Positions 1 through 18,986 of a stretch of 19,671 nt of DNA are shown one piece after another. Where the stretch lies: the NCBI GenBank assembly GCA_016839445.1, contig JAEOUG010000041.1, forward strand, positions 1-19,671. Reading direction: 5' to 3'. Both the position numbers and the translations under genes were made by a program. This stretch comes from Candidatus Thorarchaeota archaeon (GTDB lineage: Archaea; Asgardarchaeota; Thorarchaeia; Thorarchaeales; Thorarchaeaceae). The notes beneath the pieces were generated by a model. It was not told where the DNA came from and did not search any database. It saw only the letters and a list, made by a program, of their open reading frames with translations. Positions within the stretch are counted from its first letter, which is position 1. Every line of letters begins with the position of its first letter.

Positions 1-52
1 GGCCTGGAAGGCGAAGCTAGAGCCAATCTATGCTGGAGCAAAGGCTGCATAG
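1..52 (+). CDS. Probable 3' end of an upstream gene (partial, ...AWKAKLEPIYAGAKAA*), likely in the same operon
   Basis: Frame 2 is open from the window edge to TAG at 50-52. The stop overlaps the AGGTGA RBS (51-56) of the next gene. Too short to identify. Confidence 0.4.
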   Translation, partial: AWKAKLEPIYAGAKAA

Positions 53-62
53 GTGATAGTTC

Positions 63-1019
63 ATGCGCATCATCGCCGAAGCGGCTGGTGTGTCGCTGGC
101 CGTTCCAGATGATGCGTATCTCTCATTCTTCAACAGCCCCTATGCTGGTCACTCTCTTGGTTCTGCAGTTGACGTCTATCCTTTCGAACGCACGTGGGGC
201 TGCCCTGTGCCTTCACCGGCAAACGGTGTCATCAAAGAGATCAAGAAGATGAAGATGGGACGACGCAAGCCCTTCGAGACGGCAGACCACGACTTCGCTG
301 TGGGAATCGCCCCAGAAGGCTCAGACGATCTGCTCATCAGAGTCATGCACCTTTCCCCCTCTCTAAGTCCTGGTGACCATGTTGAGATGGGCTCAGTACT
401 CGGCGAGACCCTGCGCTCTCGATACTTCAACTACTGGACAGGCCCGCACTTCCATATGGAGATCATGCGGTCCAGGAACTTCCATCGAGCTACGAAGTCG
501 ATGCCCCTCGAAGTGGACCTTGGAGAGTCCAGATTGCGGCAGGCTTCTGGTTCGCCTCATGACCAAGAGGTGATGGAAGCATCAGCAGACTGGGTGACTG
601 TGCGTGGAACGGGCTTTGACATCTGCCAGTGTGGGCACTACTACGGCATTGCAGGATTCACTAACAAGAGCGGGAGCGGGGGTATTCTAGACGCGGGTCT
701 CACGCACTACGGTCATGGCGCCTTGGTGGGATCTGAGCAACCAGAGGAATCTGAGACCATCCAGTTTCAGTCAGTGGAGGTGGGCAGGATGCATTGGTCG
801 AGAAGGAACCTTCACTTCTTTGTACGCACCAACGAGTTGGCGTTATCCCTTGGAGAACACGCCCTTCGAGGTCTCTCGGCCTTCCTCTACCCCAAGCAAT
901 ACTTGAAAGAGGGAGTACCGCCCTTGGTCTGTATCCCGCTTCAGCAGGGAGGGCCCTTGAGCCAGCTAGATCCTGGAGATACACATGAGCTTCACATCAA
1001 CAGCATTAAAGCAACATAG
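63..1019 (+). CDS. M23/LAS-like Zn-metallohydrolase domain protein, conserved archaeal type, no signal peptide
   Basis: FFNSPYAGH(30)xxxxxxD(37)VYP, RVMH(96)L, PGDHVEMGSVLG and TGPH(129)FH(131)MEI match the M23 pattern HxxxD...HL...GxxVxxGxxIG...GPHLHFE. RBS AGGTGA at 51-56. Confidence 0.72.
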   Translation: MRIIAEAAGVSLAVPDDAYLSFFNSPYAGHSLGSAVDVYPFERTWGCPVPSPANGVIKEIKKMKMGRRKPFETADHDFAVGIAPEGSDDLLIRVMHLSPSLSPGDHVEMGSVLGETLRSRYFNYWTGPHFHMEIMRSRNFHRATKSMPLEVDLGESRLRQASGSPHDQEVMEASADWVTVRGTGFDICQCGHYYGIAGFTNKSGSGGILDAGLTHYGHGALVGSEQPEESETIQFQSVEVGRMHWSRRNLHFFVRTNELALSLGEHALRGLSAFLYPKQYLKEGVPPLVCIPLQQGGPLSQLDPGDTHELHINSIKAT

Positions 1020-1040
1020 ACACAACGGAGCCTGATTAGG

Positions 1041-2018
1041 TTGGTAGAGAAGGTTCGTCTTTCAGTTGGAACGGCGATGCGACTAGGACTCGTACCAAGT
1101 GAGGACGTGTCATACTTCACAACCGCCTTCCTGTTGACCTATCATCCATCTGGCTGCAACGCCAATTGCGCCTTCTGTCCACAGGCTCAGGATAGCACCG
1201 CTTCATCGGACCGTTTGTCTAGGCTGACCTGGCCTGAGTTTTCCATGGATGAAGTTCTGGCAAGTTGGCCATCTCATAGAGGGTTTGCCAGAGTATGCAT
1301 TCAGACGCTTTGCTATGAAGAGGTAGTTGACGACGTGCTGGAACTCACGAGGCGAGTGCGTTCTGTTTCAGACGCACCTGTTTCAGTCGCCGTACATCCG
1401 GTCTCGCTGGAGGACATGGAACGATTAAAGCTGGGAGGAGTCACTGACATCGGCATCGCTCTGGATGCCTGCACGCGAGAGGTCTTCGACCAAATCAAGG
1501 GTGAGTCGCGCGGGTCTCGGTACAGATGGGAGAAACACCTGAAGGCGCTGAAGGATGCGCTCGGCATCTTCGGAGTCGGTCATGTGACGACACACTTGAT
1601 CGTAGGACTAGGTGAAACGGAAAAGGAGGCAGCTGACTTCATCTTCGATATGTATGGACTGGGAATAGGAGTGGGTCTCTTTGCATTCACTCCCATCAAG
1701 GGGACATCACTGGAAGGTAGACCCCCTCCACGAATTGATGTCTATCGGAGAATACAGACTGTCAGGTATCTTGCCCAAAACGAACATCTATCCAGAGAAA
1801 TGGTCAGGACTGATAAGAATGGGAGGATCTCACTGGATATGGACCCGAAGGAGCTGAAGCAGATATTGGAGTCAGGCGATGCTTTCAGAGTATCCGGATG
1901 CATAGGATGCAACCGTCCATACTACAATGAGAGACCCTCTGGCAAGCTGTACAACTACCACCGTCCGCTTTCAAGCGTTGAGAAGACTGCCGCTCTAGAA
2001 GAAATGGAGTTGGTGTAG
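1041..2018 (+). CDS. lipS2: Radical SAM lipoyl synthase subunit LipS2 (biotin-synthase-like)
   Basis: CNANCAFC (CxxxCxxC) followed by PQA...RLSRLTWP, plus HLIVGLGETE. C-terminal SGCIGCNRPYYNERP resembles the LipS2 TxGCPxC(N/D)RP signature. Lies directly upstream of lipoate ligase genes. Confidence 0.82.
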   Translation: MVEKVRLSVGTAMRLGLVPSEDVSYFTTAFLLTYHPSGCNANCAFCPQAQDSTASSDRLSRLTWPEFSMDEVLASWPSHRGFARVCIQTLCYEEVVDDVLELTRRVRSVSDAPVSVAVHPVSLEDMERLKLGGVTDIGIALDACTREVFDQIKGESRGSRYRWEKHLKALKDALGIFGVGHVTTHLIVGLGETEKEAADFIFDMYGLGIGVGLFAFTPIKGTSLEGRPPPRIDVYRRIQTVRYLAQNEHLSREMVRTDKNGRISLDMDPKELKQILESGDAFRVSGCIGCNRPYYNERPSGKLYNYHRPLSSVEKTAALEEMELV

Positions 2019-2020
2019 GC

Positions 2021-2788
2021 GTGGAGGAAGTCCGGTTCTTAGATCTCGAAACGAACAGCTCGGCTTTGAATATGGCCACAGATGAATCCATCATGCTGGC
2101 ACAGAAGCGCGGAGAAGCGCCGCCCACACTAAGGCTATACAGATGGAAACCTTCGGCTGTTTCTATTGGCACCTTTCAGAGCATGGAAGATGAGGTTGAT
2201 GTAGGATTCTGCAAGAGACAAGGTATGGACTACATCCGACGTATTACCGGAGGAGGGGCGGTGTACCACGACTATGAAGGAGAGATCACCTACAGCATCA
2301 TCTTCCCTAAAGGCCATAGACTTGTGCCAGACGACATCATCGACTCTTACAGAATCCTCTGTGGAGGCGTAATCAAGGCCCTGGAACGAATGGATGTGTC
2401 TGCTGAATTCAAGCCAATCAACGATATTGTCGTTAACGGAGTCAAGGTGTCAGGAAACGCCCAAACGCGCCGGCACTCCTGTGTGCTGCAGCACGGAACG
2501 GTACTGCTGGACCTTGACGTACGAACGATGTTTCAGATACTCAAGGTTCCCGCCGAGAAGATTTCAGACAAGATGATATCTGATGTCCGGCAACGCGTCA
2601 CATCAATCAGACATCTCTTGGAGAGGAAGGTCTCATTCGGGGAACTTCGTGATGCAATGGTTGAAGGCTTCTCTGAGGCGCTCAACGTAGCCCTTGTTCC
2701 AGGTGCACTCTCAAAGAGAGAAAGGGATGACCTCGAGCGGCTCACTGTTGAGAAGTATGCGACTGACGCGTGGAACATGTCTAGGTGA
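2021..2788 (+). CDS. lplA: Lipoate-protein ligase A, catalytic subunit
   Basis: NMATDE, PTLRLYRW, RRITGGGAVYHD, PINDIVVNGVKVSGNAQ and LQHGTVL are BPL/LplA/LipB family motifs. Confidence 0.95.
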   Translation: MEEVRFLDLETNSSALNMATDESIMLAQKRGEAPPTLRLYRWKPSAVSIGTFQSMEDEVDVGFCKRQGMDYIRRITGGGAVYHDYEGEITYSIIFPKGHRLVPDDIIDSYRILCGGVIKALERMDVSAEFKPINDIVVNGVKVSGNAQTRRHSCVLQHGTVLLDLDVRTMFQILKVPAEKISDKMISDVRQRVTSIRHLLERKVSFGELRDAMVEGFSEALNVALVPGALSKRERDDLERLTVEKYATDAWNMSR

Positions 2789-2793
2789 CTATC

Positions 2794-3081
2794 ATGTTTG
2801 TCTATGACCATAAGGTTCCAGGAGGGAAGCTTGTCCGCATTAAGATGAGAGTACACGACGACCGCGTCACATTCATTCAGATACTAGGTGACTTCTTCCT
2901 CCACCCTGAGGAGGCAATCACTGCCCTTGAGAATGCGATTGTCGGAAAGGAGCTCTCGGAACCAATCCTCCTTGCAGCAATAGAGAGCGCCCTGCAGAGT
3001 GAAACAGCTCGGCTCATTGGGGCAGATTCAAACGACTTGGTTAAAGCTATTCTCCTTGCATCGGGCAAGCCTGCAAGATAG
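2794..3081 (+). CDS. lplB: Lipoate-protein ligase accessory (C-terminal-domain) subunit
   Basis: KVPGGKLVR...I.GDFF.HPE...LE..I.G is the Lip_prot_lig_C signature. ATG 2794 follows an AGGTGA RBS (2783-2788) that overlaps the lplA stop. Confidence 0.9.
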   Translation: MFVYDHKVPGGKLVRIKMRVHDDRVTFIQILGDFFLHPEEAITALENAIVGKELSEPILLAAIESALQSETARLIGADSNDLVKAILLASGKPAR

Positions 3082-5327: not shown

Positions 5328-5375
5328 GCACTAGCAAGAGTGAAATATCAATCTGCAGACCCTAATGTGATAGCG

Positions 5376-5858
5376 ATGGTAGACCCAGAATACCTACAGG
5401 ACGCCAAAGTTCAGAAAGTCGACGCCGACATTAGGAACTTCAAAGTAGAGCTTCAGAAGCTAAAGATGAGCCTTGAAGGTCTTGACGCGAAGCTTGATGC
5501 CGAGATTCAACAGAAGGCATCCGATGTCAAGATGCGGAATGACGCCGTTGAGACTCAGAAGGCCAGACTCAGACAAGCCGAGAATGACCTGAAGGATGCT
5601 CAGAAGAGACACAGAGACGCTCAGAAACAGAAGGGGAACGCTCGGGACGACCTCAGGAAACAGGTCGAGAGGATCCAGAAACGCATCAGTGATGCAGAGA
5701 AGACGAAGGAGAAGCGCTTCAAGGAGCTCGACAAAGAGAAGGAGAAGCTTGTTGAGAAGGCAAAGAGGGAGAAGGCAAGAGAGATGGAGGAGCTCAAAGC
5801 TCGGGAAATGGAACGTGTAGCGGAGGAAAAGCGTCGCGAGCTAGGGCTTGGCCAGTAG
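5376..5858 (+). CDS. Small, highly charged all-helical coiled-coil protein
   Basis: K/E/R/Q-rich heptads over about 150 aa with almost no Pro. ATG 5376 is preceded by GTGA. Confidence 0.8.
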   Translation: MVDPEYLQDAKVQKVDADIRNFKVELQKLKMSLEGLDAKLDAEIQQKASDVKMRNDAVETQKARLRQAENDLKDAQKRHRDAQKQKGNARDDLRKQVERIQKRISDAEKTKEKRFKELDKEKEKLVEKAKREKAREMEELKAREMERVAEEKRRELGLGQ

Positions 5859-5886
5859 CCCCGCGCAAGACAAGGGAGGGAGCAAT

Positions 5887-6852
5887 ATGAATGCCTACTT
5901 CGGTATAGTCCTCATCTCGTTCATCCTGTTCTTCACAGTCTGGGGTCTTGGTTGGCTCCTCGAGCGACTCTCCTACAGGATGTTGAAAGCCACGCAGAGT
6001 CCAGGGTCGAGATCATGGTACGCCCTTGTAGGTCCAGGAGTTGCGCTCCACGAGTCATCTCATGCGTTGGGATGCGTAGTCACCAGAACCGAGATCGTCG
6101 AGTTCAAACCGATTAACATCTCAGAGCAAGATGACCAGATTGTACTCGGATATGTCAAATACAGGAAGCCTCCAAGCGCCCTCAAGAATGCCATCATCAA
6201 CCTAGCTCCAGTGGCAGTGTCACTGGTCCTCTTGATTGCCTTTGCATTTGGAGCTACCTACTTGGTCCCCGACCGACCAAGTCTCGGAAGGTCTGCACTT
6301 GACCTATTCTGGGATCTTCTCGGTGCCAAAAACCAGCCGCTGATCTACCCAGTTCTGGCGATTGGAGAGTACGTTTACCAGTTTCTCTACACAATTGCAG
6401 AGCTGACTGTCATCAATCCTGTCTTCTGGATCGTGGCCTTCCTCGCAATGACAATCATGTTTTCCAACGCACCTTCAGAGGCTGACATCCGTAATGCTTG
6501 GTCAGGACTCAAGTTCATCGTGGTGTTCAACCTGATTTGGTTGGTAGTAGCGTTCTTCCTTCCTGAGGCGGGTTGGCTGCTCATTGGATTCTTCGAGATT
6601 CTCGCGGTCATGTTCTCGCTGGCGCTCGCATTTGCTGCCATAGGATATGGCTTCTTCATCCTCGTTGCAGCAATGGCCCGGATTCGTTCGCCATTCCAGG
6701 TGATACCCTTCGTGGCTTGTCTCGCCACCGGTCTTGTGATGTCACTCCAGTTAATTGGCTCTGCTGCGTTTCAGACCATGTCTTCACTTGCCGTCTTCAT
6801 GCTTGTGACGCTTCTCATGCTGTCGATGAAATCACTGAGAGCACCTAGATAA
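5887..6852 (+). CDS. Polytopic membrane Zn-metalloprotease, M50/site-2-protease-like
   Basis: PGVALHESSHALGC (HExxH beside a hydrophobic segment), LGYV, INLAP and downstream APSEAD (candidate third Zn ligand). About 7-8 TM segments. GGAGG RBS before ATG 5887 (TTG 5848 is an alternative start). Confidence 0.78.
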   Translation: MNAYFGIVLISFILFFTVWGLGWLLERLSYRMLKATQSPGSRSWYALVGPGVALHESSHALGCVVTRTEIVEFKPINISEQDDQIVLGYVKYRKPPSALKNAIINLAPVAVSLVLLIAFAFGATYLVPDRPSLGRSALDLFWDLLGAKNQPLIYPVLAIGEYVYQFLYTIAELTVINPVFWIVAFLAMTIMFSNAPSEADIRNAWSGLKFIVVFNLIWLVVAFFLPEAGWLLIGFFEILAVMFSLALAFAAIGYGFFILVAAMARIRSPFQVIPFVACLATGLVMSLQLIGSAAFQTMSSLAVFMLVTLLMLSMKSLRAPR

Positions 6853-6900
6853 TACTGAGTCTAATATTCGACACTTCGTGTTCGTACTCAGGTACTGAAT

Positions 6901-7248
6901 ATGGCGAAGATCAATGTAGTCAGACGACCCTCTCTGATAAGCCCCCGTCACTTCCTTCGCTACATCTTCTTCACAGAAATGCAGGTTGAGCAAGCAGTCA
7001 AGATTCTGGATGTGATTGTACGAAACCAAGGTGAGCTCATGGACAACCAGTGGCAGCAGCTTGTGTTGTCAAGCCGTGGGCTGTACGTCAAGGTCATGCG
7101 GAAGCTTCGAGACGTGGGTATCGTGAAGAAGGATCTCGGCAAATTCAAATTGTCAACTGACTTCTCTACTGCGCTGAGCAAGCTTTCAGCCTTCTGGTTG
7201 GACACAACAAGAGCCTTTGAGGCGGGTGACAGAGACCTCTTTGCCTAA
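6901..7248 (+). CDS. Small winged-helix-like protein
   Basis: YVKVMRKLRDVGIVKK..GKFKLS..FS..L..L...W fits a recognition helix plus wing. Confidence 0.65.
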   Translation: MAKINVVRRPSLISPRHFLRYIFFTEMQVEQAVKILDVIVRNQGELMDNQWQQLVLSSRGLYVKVMRKLRDVGIVKKDLGKFKLSTDFSTALSKLSAFWLDTTRAFEAGDRDLFA

Positions 7249-8819
7249 TCGATCTCGACTTCGCCTTCTTTGAGCTTGACATCCTTCAGAGTGGAAACTA
7301 CCTTCTCTCCGCGGACAGTAAGAGCTCCAAGCTTCTCAAGTTCTCTTGCCCACTTCTTGATAAGACCCACGGGAGTGCCAAGCGACTTGCCAAGTTCCGT
7401 GAAAGTTATGGACCCTACTTCGTCCACAAGAAGCAGAACCTTTGTGTTGTTCTCCATCCCTAGGACGCTGATATACCGCTTTGTCCTCTCGTCGGAGAGG
7501 TCTCTCTGTTCGAGAGCAATGTCGCGCTCCTTCTCCATCAGACGTGTCGCCTTTTCGAATGCCTCTTTTTGCATCTCGAGGATTGGTATCTGCTCATTTG
7601 TCTCCTTCAGCTGCCTCTCGAGATCGTGGATGCGCTTATCCAGCTCTTTGATCTCAGAAATCCGACCCTGAAGGGAGTCAAGTTCAGCTTCGCGGGCCTT
7701 TGCCTCCTGGTTGGCTGCATCTCTCTCGGCTTTTGCATCGCTGATTTGCACTTCAAGTTCCTTGATTGTGGCTTGCGCAGCATCGCTTTCCTTACGCTTG
7801 TCTTCAAGCGTTGATTCCAGCATCTCCACCTTTGTCTGCATGGCCTCAAGCTCAGCCTCAGCTTTCTCCACCTGTGGCTTGGCAGCTTCTATCTCAGTTC
7901 TGTATGCCTCGTACTCGGTCTGTACTTCTCCGAGTTTCATGCGGGCCTCTTCCGCCTCAGCTTTGGCCTCTTCTACATCCTTGAGACGAGCATCGACCTG
8001 GACTTCTCTCATTAGGAGTTCATCACGCAGTGTGCCGACCTGCTTCTCGAGTTCGGCAACGCGGCGTTCGTACTCCTGTACTGTGGATGCAGTAGCCCTG
8101 GACGCAGTGGCTGTCGACTGCAGTCTTCTGACTTCTGCCTCAAGGCGAGTCACTTCCTGGGCCTTCTCGGCAAGCTCCTCACGCTGCGCTCCGGTCTCCT
8201 CTTCGAGACTCTGCATGAAGGAGCGCACAACGTCCTGTTGCTCGACTATTGTTGTCCTAAGGTCTACCTCAGACTCTCGAACTCTGAGGGCAAACTCCTT
8301 GAATCGCTCTTGAGTCTGTTCGACTATCTTGTCTACGAGATCCTTCTCTAGAGCCGCGAACTCAGTATCAACGATGTCGACGAATGTTGACTCGATGAAC
8401 TGCTTGAAGAACTTCATTCGAAGTCTCTCGACCATCTCTTCTGAGATGCGAGACTTCAGCTCGACGACCTTGCCACGGAATGCGAGGAGCTGAGCTGCGA
8501 ATACTCCCACGACACCTCTCTGCAGAGATGAGATGTCTGAACGAAGAGTCTCAAGTTTCAGAAGTAGTGCGTCGAATCCCGCAACCGCATCATCCTGCTC
8601 TGGTCGCTCTACCGGTCCCGTGGTTTCCAGTGTGTCAACGAATTCAAGTGCCATAGCGGCCGCTGTGACAAGATCCTCACTGTCCTCAACGGGCATGACA
8701 ACCTCTCCGCTATCATCAACACCCTCTGCGAGCCGCTCCAGCTCGGCGTCTGTGAGGATTGCGCTCTTGAGAGCATCTTCCATCTCAGACCTTTCCTTGT
8801 CAGTGAGTTTCTTTGACAT
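7245..8819 (-). CDS. Long coiled-coil protein with acidic N-terminus and C-terminal winged-helix domain
   Basis: About 350 aa of E/K/Q/L heptads. C-terminal KVLLLVDEVGSITFTELGKSLG.PVGLIKKWARELEKLGALTV is wHTH-like. No Walker A motif. ATG 8819 has a GGGGA RBS. Confidence 0.82.
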   Translation of the reverse strand: MSKKLTDKERSEMEDALKSAILTDAELERLAEGVDDSGEVVMPVEDSEDLVTAAAMALEFVDTLETTGPVERPEQDDAVAGFDALLLKLETLRSDISSLQRGVVGVFAAQLLAFRGKVVELKSRISEEMVERLRMKFFKQFIESTFVDIVDTEFAALEKDLVDKIVEQTQERFKEFALRVRESEVDLRTTIVEQQDVVRSFMQSLEEETGAQREELAEKAQEVTRLEAEVRRLQSTATASRATASTVQEYERRVAELEKQVGTLRDELLMREVQVDARLKDVEEAKAEAEEARMKLGEVQTEYEAYRTEIEAAKPQVEKAEAELEAMQTKVEMLESTLEDKRKESDAAQATIKELEVQISDAKAERDAANQEAKAREAELDSLQGRISEIKELDKRIHDLERQLKETNEQIPILEMQKEAFEKATRLMEKERDIALEQRDLSDERTKRYISVLGMENNTKVLLLVDEVGSITFTELGKSLGTPVGLIKKWARELEKLGALTVRGEKVVSTLKDVKLKEGEVEID

Positions 8820-8863
8820 CTGGTATGTCCCCAGCAACCGTGCTGGTGTTACTGTGCGATGCA

Positions 8864-17880: not shown

Positions 17881-18444
17881 TTGGTGTGGAGTGTAGTCAT
17901 CCTGCAAGACAACGTGGCCTATCTCTTCAAAATCGTCTTCCTGGGAGAAGGAGCAGTGGGGAAGACCAGCTTAGTAGGTCGCTATGTCTACGACAGCTTC
18001 GAGGGGGACTATCTCGCTACTATAGGTACTGACATCCATGTCAAGATCGTCGACGTCAAAGAAACACGCGTCAAGCTTGTGATATGGGATATAGCGGGAC
18101 AAGACAACTTCGCCCAGCTGAGGCGCGCCTATTATCAGAACGCCTCTGGAGCCTTCTTCGTATTCGACACGACTAGGACTGAGACCATCAGGCGCATTGA
18201 TGACTGGATCAATGCCCTCTACGCGGTGACCGGAGAGATTCCGCTTGTCATCCTCGAGAATAAGACCGACCTTGAGAGCGGCCTCGAAGAGGACGAGCGG
18301 CAGGCTGTGATCTCCAAGTATAATACACCCATCCTTAAGACGAGCGCAAAAGAGGATGTAAACGTAGAAGAGGCCTTCCGAGAGGTGACTGGAGAGATTC
18401 TTAAGCGTGCGCGCGAAAGGAAGTCTGCCGCCTCTGGTATGTGA
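17881..18444 (+). CDS. Rab-like small GTPase (Ras superfamily) 1
   Basis: G1 GEGAVGKT, G2 ATIG, G3 WDIAGQ, G4 NKTD, G5 TSAK, with RabF-like KLVIW and AYYQNA. Exact start uncertain. Confidence 0.95.
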   Translation: MVWSVVILQDNVAYLFKIVFLGEGAVGKTSLVGRYVYDSFEGDYLATIGTDIHVKIVDVKETRVKLVIWDIAGQDNFAQLRRAYYQNASGAFFVFDTTRTETIRRIDDWINALYAVTGEIPLVILENKTDLESGLEEDERQAVISKYNTPILKTSAKEDVNVEEAFREVTGEILKRARERKSAASGM

Positions 18445-18986
18445 GTGAGGGCCAAGGAGATCTCGAAATGCCCGGTTTGGACCCGGACTTCGTTTACAAG
18501 ATCGTCTTTCTCGGGGACACTGGCGTGGGAAAGACTTCACTAGTTCAGCGGTTCGTGTATGATAGTCTCGAGCCAGATTTGGGGAGGACTATTGGTGCTG
18601 TTCTTCACGTGAAGAACGTCGAACACAGGAGTGCCCTGCACAAGCTAGTGATTTGGGACCTTGGGGGCCAGGAATCCTTCGCACAGCTGAGAGAGCAATA
18701 CTGCGCCAACTCAACAGGTGCCTTCTTTGTCTTTGACCGGACCCGGCCGGACACGCTGGCGAATATGGACAGCTGGCTAGGCGCCCTGAAGACTGGAAGC
18801 AAGGATGCTGTTGTGGTGGCTGTTGAGAACAAGATAGATCTCGACTCTGCAATCACTGATGACCAGGTCAAGGCCCTCGTTGAGGCGCGAGGACTGATTC
18901 TCGTTCCCACTAGTGCCACCGAGAACCAGAACGTTGACAAGGCCTTTGAAGAGATGGTCAAGCTCATTCGTTCAAGAAGAGACTAG
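18441..18986 (+). CDS. Rab-like small GTPase (Ras superfamily) 2
   Basis: G1 GDTGVGKT, G2 RTIG, G3 WDLGGQ, G4 NKID, G5 TSAT. GTGA overlap with the previous stop (ATG 18468 is an alternative start). Confidence 0.95.
   Translation: MSEGQGDLEMPGLDPDFVYKIVFLGDTGVGKTSLVQRFVYDSLEPDLGRTIGAVLHVKNVEHRSALHKLVIWDLGGQESFAQLREQYCANSTGAFFVFDRTRPDTLANMDSWLGALKTGSKDAVVVAVENKIDLDSAITDDQVKALVEARGLILVPTSATENQNVDKAFEEMVKLIRSRRD

Follow-up and report, generated by a model that had tools for sequence, protein, structure and literature searches.

DUF8155, an uncharacterized archaeal protein family with a predicted M23 fold and genomic links to lipoate metabolism

Described lipoylation systems and the Thorarchaeota locus

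In the excerpts of PMC10332631, the Lpl(AB)-LipS1/LipS2 lipoylation pathway (Tanabe 2023, PMC10332631; Cao 2018, PMC6067878) starts from free octanoate, its named accessories are LipT, LipX and LipY, and the gene order lipS2-lplA-lplB is called typical for archaea; the terms peptidase, hydrolase, lipoamidase and M23 are absent from the main text of that paper. LipS2 inserts the C8 sulfur, as stated in the excerpts of PMC13692748. Free octanoate or lipoate is the starting point of lipoylation in archaea, and the literature examined describes neither the source of the acid nor a route for removing the cofactor. Here we analyze a 19,671-nucleotide stretch of DNA from a Candidatus Thorarchaeota archaeon (contig JAEOUG010000041.1; the window, which is one entire contig of a 2.9-Mb genome that is 89.8% complete), in which an open reading frame at 63..1019 (+ strand, ATG start) encodes a 318-amino-acid protein of the family DUF8155 and is followed by lipS2, lplA and lplB. 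Judging from sequence comparisons and a structural model, we conclude that DUF8155 is a real, conserved and uncharacterized family with an apparent M23 fold, whose genomic setting is good evidence that it belongs to archaeal lipoate metabolism; a role of some kind there is probable. As to the reaction, we tentatively favor removal of lipoyl or octanoyl groups from lysine by a cytoplasmic zinc amidohydrolase (a lipoamidase or de-octanoylase) acting as an accessory.

The sequence-only reading that preceded this work had placed the gene 21 bp upstream of lipS2 in a tight same-strand run, a description that our profile searches bore out. They identified lipS2 (radical-SAM lipoyl synthase, TTG start; 1041..2018, + strand; NCBIfam NF053743, 325.7 bits against a cut-off of 270), lplA (catalytic subunit of lipoate-protein ligase; 2021..2788, + strand; PF21948, E = 7.4e-55; NF053750, E = 4.2e-58, below cut-off) and lplB (small ligase subunit; 2785..3081, + strand; NF053749, 64.6 bits against a cut-off of 65; PF10437, E = 1.1e-6). 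The spacings from the DUF8155 gene onward are 21, 2 and −4 nucleotides; the start of lplB overlaps the stop of lplA (GTGA), and the gene after lplB lies on the opposite strand. What the earlier reading had missed is the upstream gene. The 3′ end of a geranylgeranyl-reductase-family gene (16 codons and a TAG stop; 2..52, + strand), its 5′ part cut off by the contig start, stops 10 nucleotides 5′ of the open reading frame, so the DUF8155 gene sits between the reductase gene and lipS2. The translated remnant resembles the C terminus of the reductase of a related locus (L001), and the best NCBIfam match of the reductase is NF041080 (DGGGPL reductase; E = 4.5e-130, below cut-off). A GGTGAT at 52..57 (+ strand), 5 nucleotides before the ATG at 63, is likely the ribosome-binding site, judged by the archaeal Shine-Dalgarno consensus.

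No lipS1 lies within the run; a LipS1-like gene is present on contig C74 (190.8 bits, below the cut-off of 230). The genome also encodes a GcvH beside gcvT (contig C183), a second GcvH-like protein (C88) and an E2 with a further lplA (C98), and more lplA/lplB matches are found on C81 and C174. Going by these matches, the window holds an Lpl(AB)-LipS1/S2 locus: its lipS2-lplA-lplB order is that of the described pathway, and an acceptor and a LipS1-like gene (below cut-off) are encoded in the genome, the latter, unlike in that pathway, on another contig. Since two GcvH-like proteins and an E2 were found, candidate substrates of a lipoamidase are present as well. The second GcvH-like protein (L050:1465-1887 on C88; L244-L248) has an ESGKW motif, like carriers in the Sulfolobales-type cluster described below, and at least two GcvH-like genes occur in 25 of 26 Thorarchaeia-type genomes.

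Predicted fold and conserved residues

M23 enzymes hydrolyze peptide (amide) bonds by means of zinc-activated water. Their motif scheme, in the excerpts of PMC9662197, combines H(x)nD and HxH with one more His, which precedes HxH by about 30 residues. By its sequence, the 318-amino-acid protein is one that carries this full set (H30-x6-D37, H96 and H129-x-H131), at the positions that the sequence-only reading had listed as metal ligands. The protein is assigned to Pfam DUF8155 (PF26482) by precomputed annotation, and the Atlas likewise names DUF8155 (score 0.97); most close homologues also match PF26483 (DUF8155_C), and the closest named ones come from Candidatus Thorarchaeota. Pfam assigns the family no function. 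Literature searches, with most subscription journals outside their scope, returned no title or abstract describing the family, and the term DUF8155 was not found. A profile search among 1.84 billion entries gave 268 representatives at E ≤ 0.001, while a plasmid search gave no homologue. Scanning the protein against NCBIfam gave no family at E 0.1, and no lipoamidase-type family was matched in the NCBIfam and Pfam scans.

The Pfam M23 model (PF01551) matches residues 46-137 below its curated cut-off (E = 8.5e-5; 23.1 against 28.7 bits). Among solved structures, a single-sequence search returned only noise (E ≥ 0.27), and a profile search matched M23 proteins weakly (best E = 4.7e-4). The AlphaFold2 model has a mean predicted local distance difference test score (pLDDT) of 96.8. 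It divides into an M23/LytM-fold domain (about residues 1-151) and an all-beta C-terminal domain (152-318), the former in keeping with the profiles and the alignment. Residues 6-150 of the model superimpose on EnpA (6smk; Z = 13.1, root-mean-square deviation 2.3, 116 residues aligned), and most of the 26 best structural matches, all with Z ≥ 9, are M23/LytM-family domains, SpoIIQ, LytM and lysostaphin (E = 8e-5) included. On this model, the protein is predicted to have the M23/LytM fold. The earlier description as M23/LAS-like thus stood as regards predicted fold and ligand set, but the Pfam score falls short of membership.

Folded alone, the C-terminal domain gave a pLDDT of 93.9. Its structural matches did not go beyond generic small beta-barrels, MreC being the best (Z = 7.0), and Foldseek gave no match at E ≤ 0.001; we draw no function from it. 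Compared with M23/LytM proteins (EnpA 6smk, LytM 2b0p, lysostaphin 4lxc; PF01551), the DUF8155 protein is thus alike in predicted fold, in H(x)nD and HxH and in the extra His, and differs in its sub-threshold Pfam score, its apparent lack of an export signal, an aromatic-rich loop before HxH, a C-terminal domain without clear match and its position among lipoylation genes. Its Hx6D spacing also departs from the Hx3D of M23B.

Conservation was assessed in 118 full-length proteins: 122 of 163 homologues were 270-351 residues long, and four of these, starting after the first motif, were excluded. H30, D37, H96, G114 and H131 are invariant (118 of 118) and H129 is kept in 108, although mean column identity is only about 19%. 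Aromatic residues stand at position 27 (Y27) in 117 sequences and at positions 121, 122 and 125 in 109, 109 and 107, respectively. The absence of a signal peptide or transmembrane segment, also claimed earlier, held on hydropathy, the measure used here in place of a dedicated predictor: the maximal 19-residue value of the 318-amino-acid protein is 0.98, none of the 118 homologues exceeds 1.6 in its first 43 residues, and the first element of the model is a beta-strand beginning at residue 2. We set aside an acyl-carrier role and also the earlier suggestion of an acyl-relay enzyme (LipB/LipM/LipL type). No Cys is shared by 50 or more of the aligned rows, and the sole Lys column to reach that number (column 289, 84 of 118) is Val in the window's protein.

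One homologue without H129 leads to a large subfamily (P0114, P0164-P0282), whose organism-named members are mostly Methanoperedens. Five Methanoperedens rows of supplement file 9 of PMC10332631 list LipS1, LipS2 and Lpl, and five Methanosarcina and five Methanothrix rows list none of them.

Gene neighborhoods and co-occurrence across archaea

We compared the surroundings of DUF8155 genes, counting a locus as linked when a lipoylation gene lies within 700 bp. From a species collection we obtained 48 loci, 47 of Thorarchaeia type and one labelled Nitrososphaerota; with the window, this makes 48 Thorarchaeia-type loci. Their usual order is agmatinase, TrmB, reductase, DUF8155 gene, lipS2, lplA, lplB. 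lipS2 lies within 700 bp in 41 of the 48 and within 5 kb in 43; among the five others, three run out after about 0.5 kb or less, and lipS2 is absent from the 1.6 kb of a fourth and from 5 kb in L039. In about ten loci, other genes are inserted between the DUF8155 gene and lipS2. Among the 48 fetched loci, 45 have the reductase gene upstream. In four relatives (L288, L289, L291, L292) the reductase gene abuts lipS2-lplA(-lplB) and the DUF8155 gene is cleanly gone. Linkage among such close kin could be inherited gene order, and we therefore turned to distant lineages.

Linked loci were found there too: 10 of 34 in other Asgard archaea, 10 of 27 in Thermoproteota and 53 of the best 80 (of 304) halophile-type metagenome contigs, whose taxon we assigned from sequence character. 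Homologues matched 80 of 251 Asgard genomes, and 34 of the 37 outside the window's family were fetched. In two of the Asgard families (f7 and f19 in our numbering), a lone lplB starts 0-22 bp downstream of the DUF8155 gene in ten loci; one further locus has lipS1-lipS2 3.8 kb away, and the remaining 23 have no lipoylation gene in the fetched flanks. All 27 matching genomes (of 301) in Thermoproteota were examined. In nine, the DUF8155 gene comes immediately behind the lipS2 of an lplAB-lipS1-lipS2 run, and GcvH-like genes are mostly close by; these loci we read as Sulfolobales-type from their gene content (compare Group II in the excerpts of PMC6067878). In one of the others the gene is convergent with lplB-lplA, two have lipoylation genes within 3.8 kb, gcvP lies no more than 5 kb away in four, and 11 have neither. 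The 53 halophile-type cases have a ligase-superfamily gene upstream on the opposite strand. Its best NCBIfam matches are LipL-type transferases, below cut-off, and its product aligns to BH3822 including a CPGS segment, whose Cys is the catalytic one in LipL.

Several of these neighborhoods have features of their own. The lone lplB of f7 and f19, without lplA, lies between the DUF8155 gene and a coaBC-type gene (L081, L082, L091-L093, L127-L131). In four of the nine Sulfolobales-type clusters, a histone-deacetylase-family gene, a second candidate acyl-lysine hydrolase, directly follows the DUF8155 gene on the same strand (L115:6846-7874, L117:4612-5610, L118:4788-5813, L120:6844-7854). One Thermoproteota clade (L104, L106, L107, L108, L048) has the DUF8155 gene between a divergent thiolase cluster and a gene of the pyridoxal-phosphate aminotransferase fold and/or a zinc dehydrogenase gene; in four loci, gcvPA/PB are found no more than 5 kb away. 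The halophile-type LipL-like protein has an FCPG motif (L182:5083-5829 and more than 50 other loci among L141-L220, the best 80 of 304); LipL is given as 0 in five Haloferax and five Halorubrum rows of file 9 of PMC10332631.

A FastTree tree of 90 rows (12 of the 48 Thorarchaeia-type, 33 of the 34 other Asgard, all 27 Thermoproteota and 18 of the 80 halophile-type loci) put the linked cases in five separately supported clades of about 17 as we read it, on an unresolved backbone with long-branch warnings. The partner and its orientation differ from clade to clade: lipS2, lipS1/S2-lplAB, lone lplB, lplBA or the LipL-like transferase. If a clade had a 1% chance of such adjacency, five of 17 would have P ~6e-7, provided the clades are independent. 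An ancestral link would make them non-independent, yet it would still have been retained. As a control, the other genes of the Thorarchaeia-type order (reductase, TrmB, agmatinase, EamA and the 3084 gene) were present in none of 141 loci outside that set, one weak helix-turn-helix match aside. The linkage to lipoate genes proposed from the window alone was thus found again among its homologues.

These counts bear directly on a reading in which the protein is an unrelated cytoplasmic hydrolase (of lipids or small amides, for example, perhaps working with geranylgeranyl reductase) whose neighborhood is inherited order. The upstream reductase is at least as constant a neighbor as the downstream lipS2, the insertions before lipS2 and the missing lipS2 of L039 point the same way, and 12 of about 17 clades have no lipoylation neighbor. 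Against it stand the recurrence of differing lipoylation partners in five clades and the reductase itself, which is absent from all 141 other loci and keeps its place when the DUF8155 gene is lost. We set aside a functional link with this Thorarchaeia-only neighbor, and consider the unrelated-hydrolase reading unlikely.

Co-occurrence argues in the same direction. Among 301 Thermoproteota genomes, all 27 carriers of a DUF8155 gene have the ligase domain (156 of 274 others do), all 27 have GcvH (154 of 274) and 26 have LipS2 at E ≤ 1e-40 (81 of 274), whereas none of the 118 ligase-negative genomes is a carrier, which again speaks against an unrelated hydrolase. Among 251 Asgard genomes, LipS2-like proteins occur in 76 of 80 carriers and 94 of 171 others, and nine families without a LipS2-like match (67 genomes) have no homologue. 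P values for such comparisons overstate the case, since related genomes are not independent samples; many of the genomes are also incomplete. The nesting of carriers within LipS2 genomes is one-way; that they are nested within genomes having ligase, GcvH and LipS2 agrees with the earlier proposal, whose interpretation as a whole is partly supported. More than one GcvH paralogue occurs in 23 of 27 Thermoproteota carriers against 31 of 154, an association that we do not count as support, since in the Loki-like family f9 it holds for 4 of 5 carriers and 5 of 5 non-carriers.

Candidate reaction and alternatives

Two kinds of lipoamidase are known, Enterococcus faecalis Lpa of the amidase-signature family and the sirtuins SIRT4, CobB and SrtN. 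The reaction we propose, taking lipoyl off lysine, is like theirs; folds and chemistry are unrelated, the known enzymes using a serine nucleophile or NAD+. The bond cut by the candidate hydrolase would be the amide that joins a lipoyl, mercaptooctanoyl or octanoyl group to the side chain of lysine. By analogy with M23 chemistry, H30, D37 and H131 would bind zinc, H129 and H96 would activate the water, and Y27 may stabilize the oxyanion. The C8 chain could be accommodated in a pocket lined by the aromatic loop Y121-F122-x-Y124-W125, while the C-terminal beta domain might help to hold the carrier (GcvH, an LbpA-like protein or an E2 lipoyl domain) or a lipoyl-peptide. Freed lipoate or octanoate would be re-attached by the neighboring LplAB, and in this way the acid could be salvaged or passed from one carrier to another, or intermediates that are stalled or damaged could be cleared. 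Such an activity is the simplest common denominator, because synthase, ligase and transferase share only the acylated lysine on the carrier and because the hydrolase is dispensable. Low as the overall identity is, 108 of 118 sequences retain every catalytic residue, and this argues for catalysis.

Several observations weigh against this proposal. Most genomes with LipS2 do without the gene: it is carried by only 26 of 107 LipS2-positive genomes in Thermoproteota and 76 of 170 in Asgard archaea, and ten of ten LipS2-positive genomes of 95-100% completeness were negative with a wide profile. Conversely, f7 and f19 have LipS2-like matches that stay under the cut-off and are weak (E 1e-44 to 1e-64), and 3 of 10 carriers have no such match. 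H129 is missing from 10 of the 118 homologues, and the clades without an adjacent lipoylation gene include all 12 rows of the Loki-like f9 and all five of f16. Genomic linkage points to a pathway, not to a reaction, and a free-running lipoamidase would oppose the adjoining ligase and would need control. Because the gene is missing from most LipS2 genomes and has disappeared cleanly from the operon of four relatives, we regard it as dispensable, an accessory; and because the loss is clean, recycling fits better than supply.

Supply is nevertheless the next reading to weigh, namely that the protein hydrolyzes octanoyl-coenzyme A (octanoyl-CoA), or another acyl thioester or ester, and so provides LplAB with free octanoate for de novo lipoylation. 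A source of the free acid is missing: according to the excerpts of PMC13692748, archaea have no acyl carrier protein homologues and the Thermococcus kodakarensis ligase does not use octanoyl-CoA. The strong nesting in LipS2 genomes, the coaBC-type gene after the lone lplB of f7 and f19, a divergent thiolase at L048, L104, L106, L107 and L125, and a 4HBT thioesterase-fold gene near seven of the best 80 halophile-type loci would all suit such a role. The many LipS2 genomes without the gene, and its deletion from an otherwise intact lipS2-lplA-lplB run, suit it less well than they suit a lipoamidase, and they weaken the idea of an essential supply of octanoate. We know of no M23 thioesterase. The halophile-type partner is LipL-like by model name, and that family moves amide-linked groups; the thiolase cluster, for its part, may serve isoprenoid synthesis. 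Taken together, we judge octanoate supply improbable.

A member of the lipoylation system could instead act mainly by binding LplB, the ligase or the carrier in the manner of an adaptor or chaperone, or it could trim lipoyl-peptides and leave the acyl-lysine bond uncut. Degenerate M23 domains work through protein-protein interaction (PMC9662197, excerpts), one DUF8155 subgroup lacks H129, and the 0-22 bp coupling to a lone lplB in ten loci would be natural for a partner of LplB; trimming would need only the peptide-bond cleavage known for M23 enzymes. A mere binder, in turn, would be hard to square with the conservation of the catalytic set, and the partner gene differs between clades, so that we hold this reading, too, to be doubtful. 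A conventional M23 peptidoglycan hydrolase, directed against bacteria or scavenging cell-wall peptides, is very improbable: although every close structural match is to a peptidoglycan hydrolase or a relative of one, none of the 118 homologues shows an N-terminal signal peptide or transmembrane segment by hydropathy, the motif has Hx6D in place of Hx3D, the 318-amino-acid protein matched no known wall-binding domain, and the gene context is metabolic.

Taking lipoyl removal and octanoate release together, we think it fairly likely that DUF8155 is a pan-archaeal, M23-derived cytoplasmic enzyme that has moved from cutting peptidoglycan into cofactor metabolism, either as a zinc-dependent lipoamidase of a third class or as the missing maker of free octanoate for lipoylation independent of acyl carrier protein. 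In either case, an M23 enzyme would be acting on something other than cell walls or secreted proteins. With putative catalytic residues named, the family is a hydrolase candidate for the source of the acid and for cofactor removal alike, and both questions are made directly testable by the occurrence of homologues in archaea of Sulfolobales and halophile type, for which genetic tools exist.

A promoter and terminator scan gave hits near chance with the bacterial patterns used. Elsewhere in the window, a run conserved in Thorarchaeia-type loci (5340-8837) encodes a short coiled-coil protein, a membrane protein with an HESSH motif, a 115-residue protein and a 530-residue coiled-coil protein with a winged-helix-like C-terminal region. 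An ATP-grasp protein (PF02655; 12154-13509, + strand) has no NCBIfam assignment above cut-off, and two tandem Ras-family small GTPases (17881-18444 and 18441-18986, + strand) overlap by 4 nucleotides.

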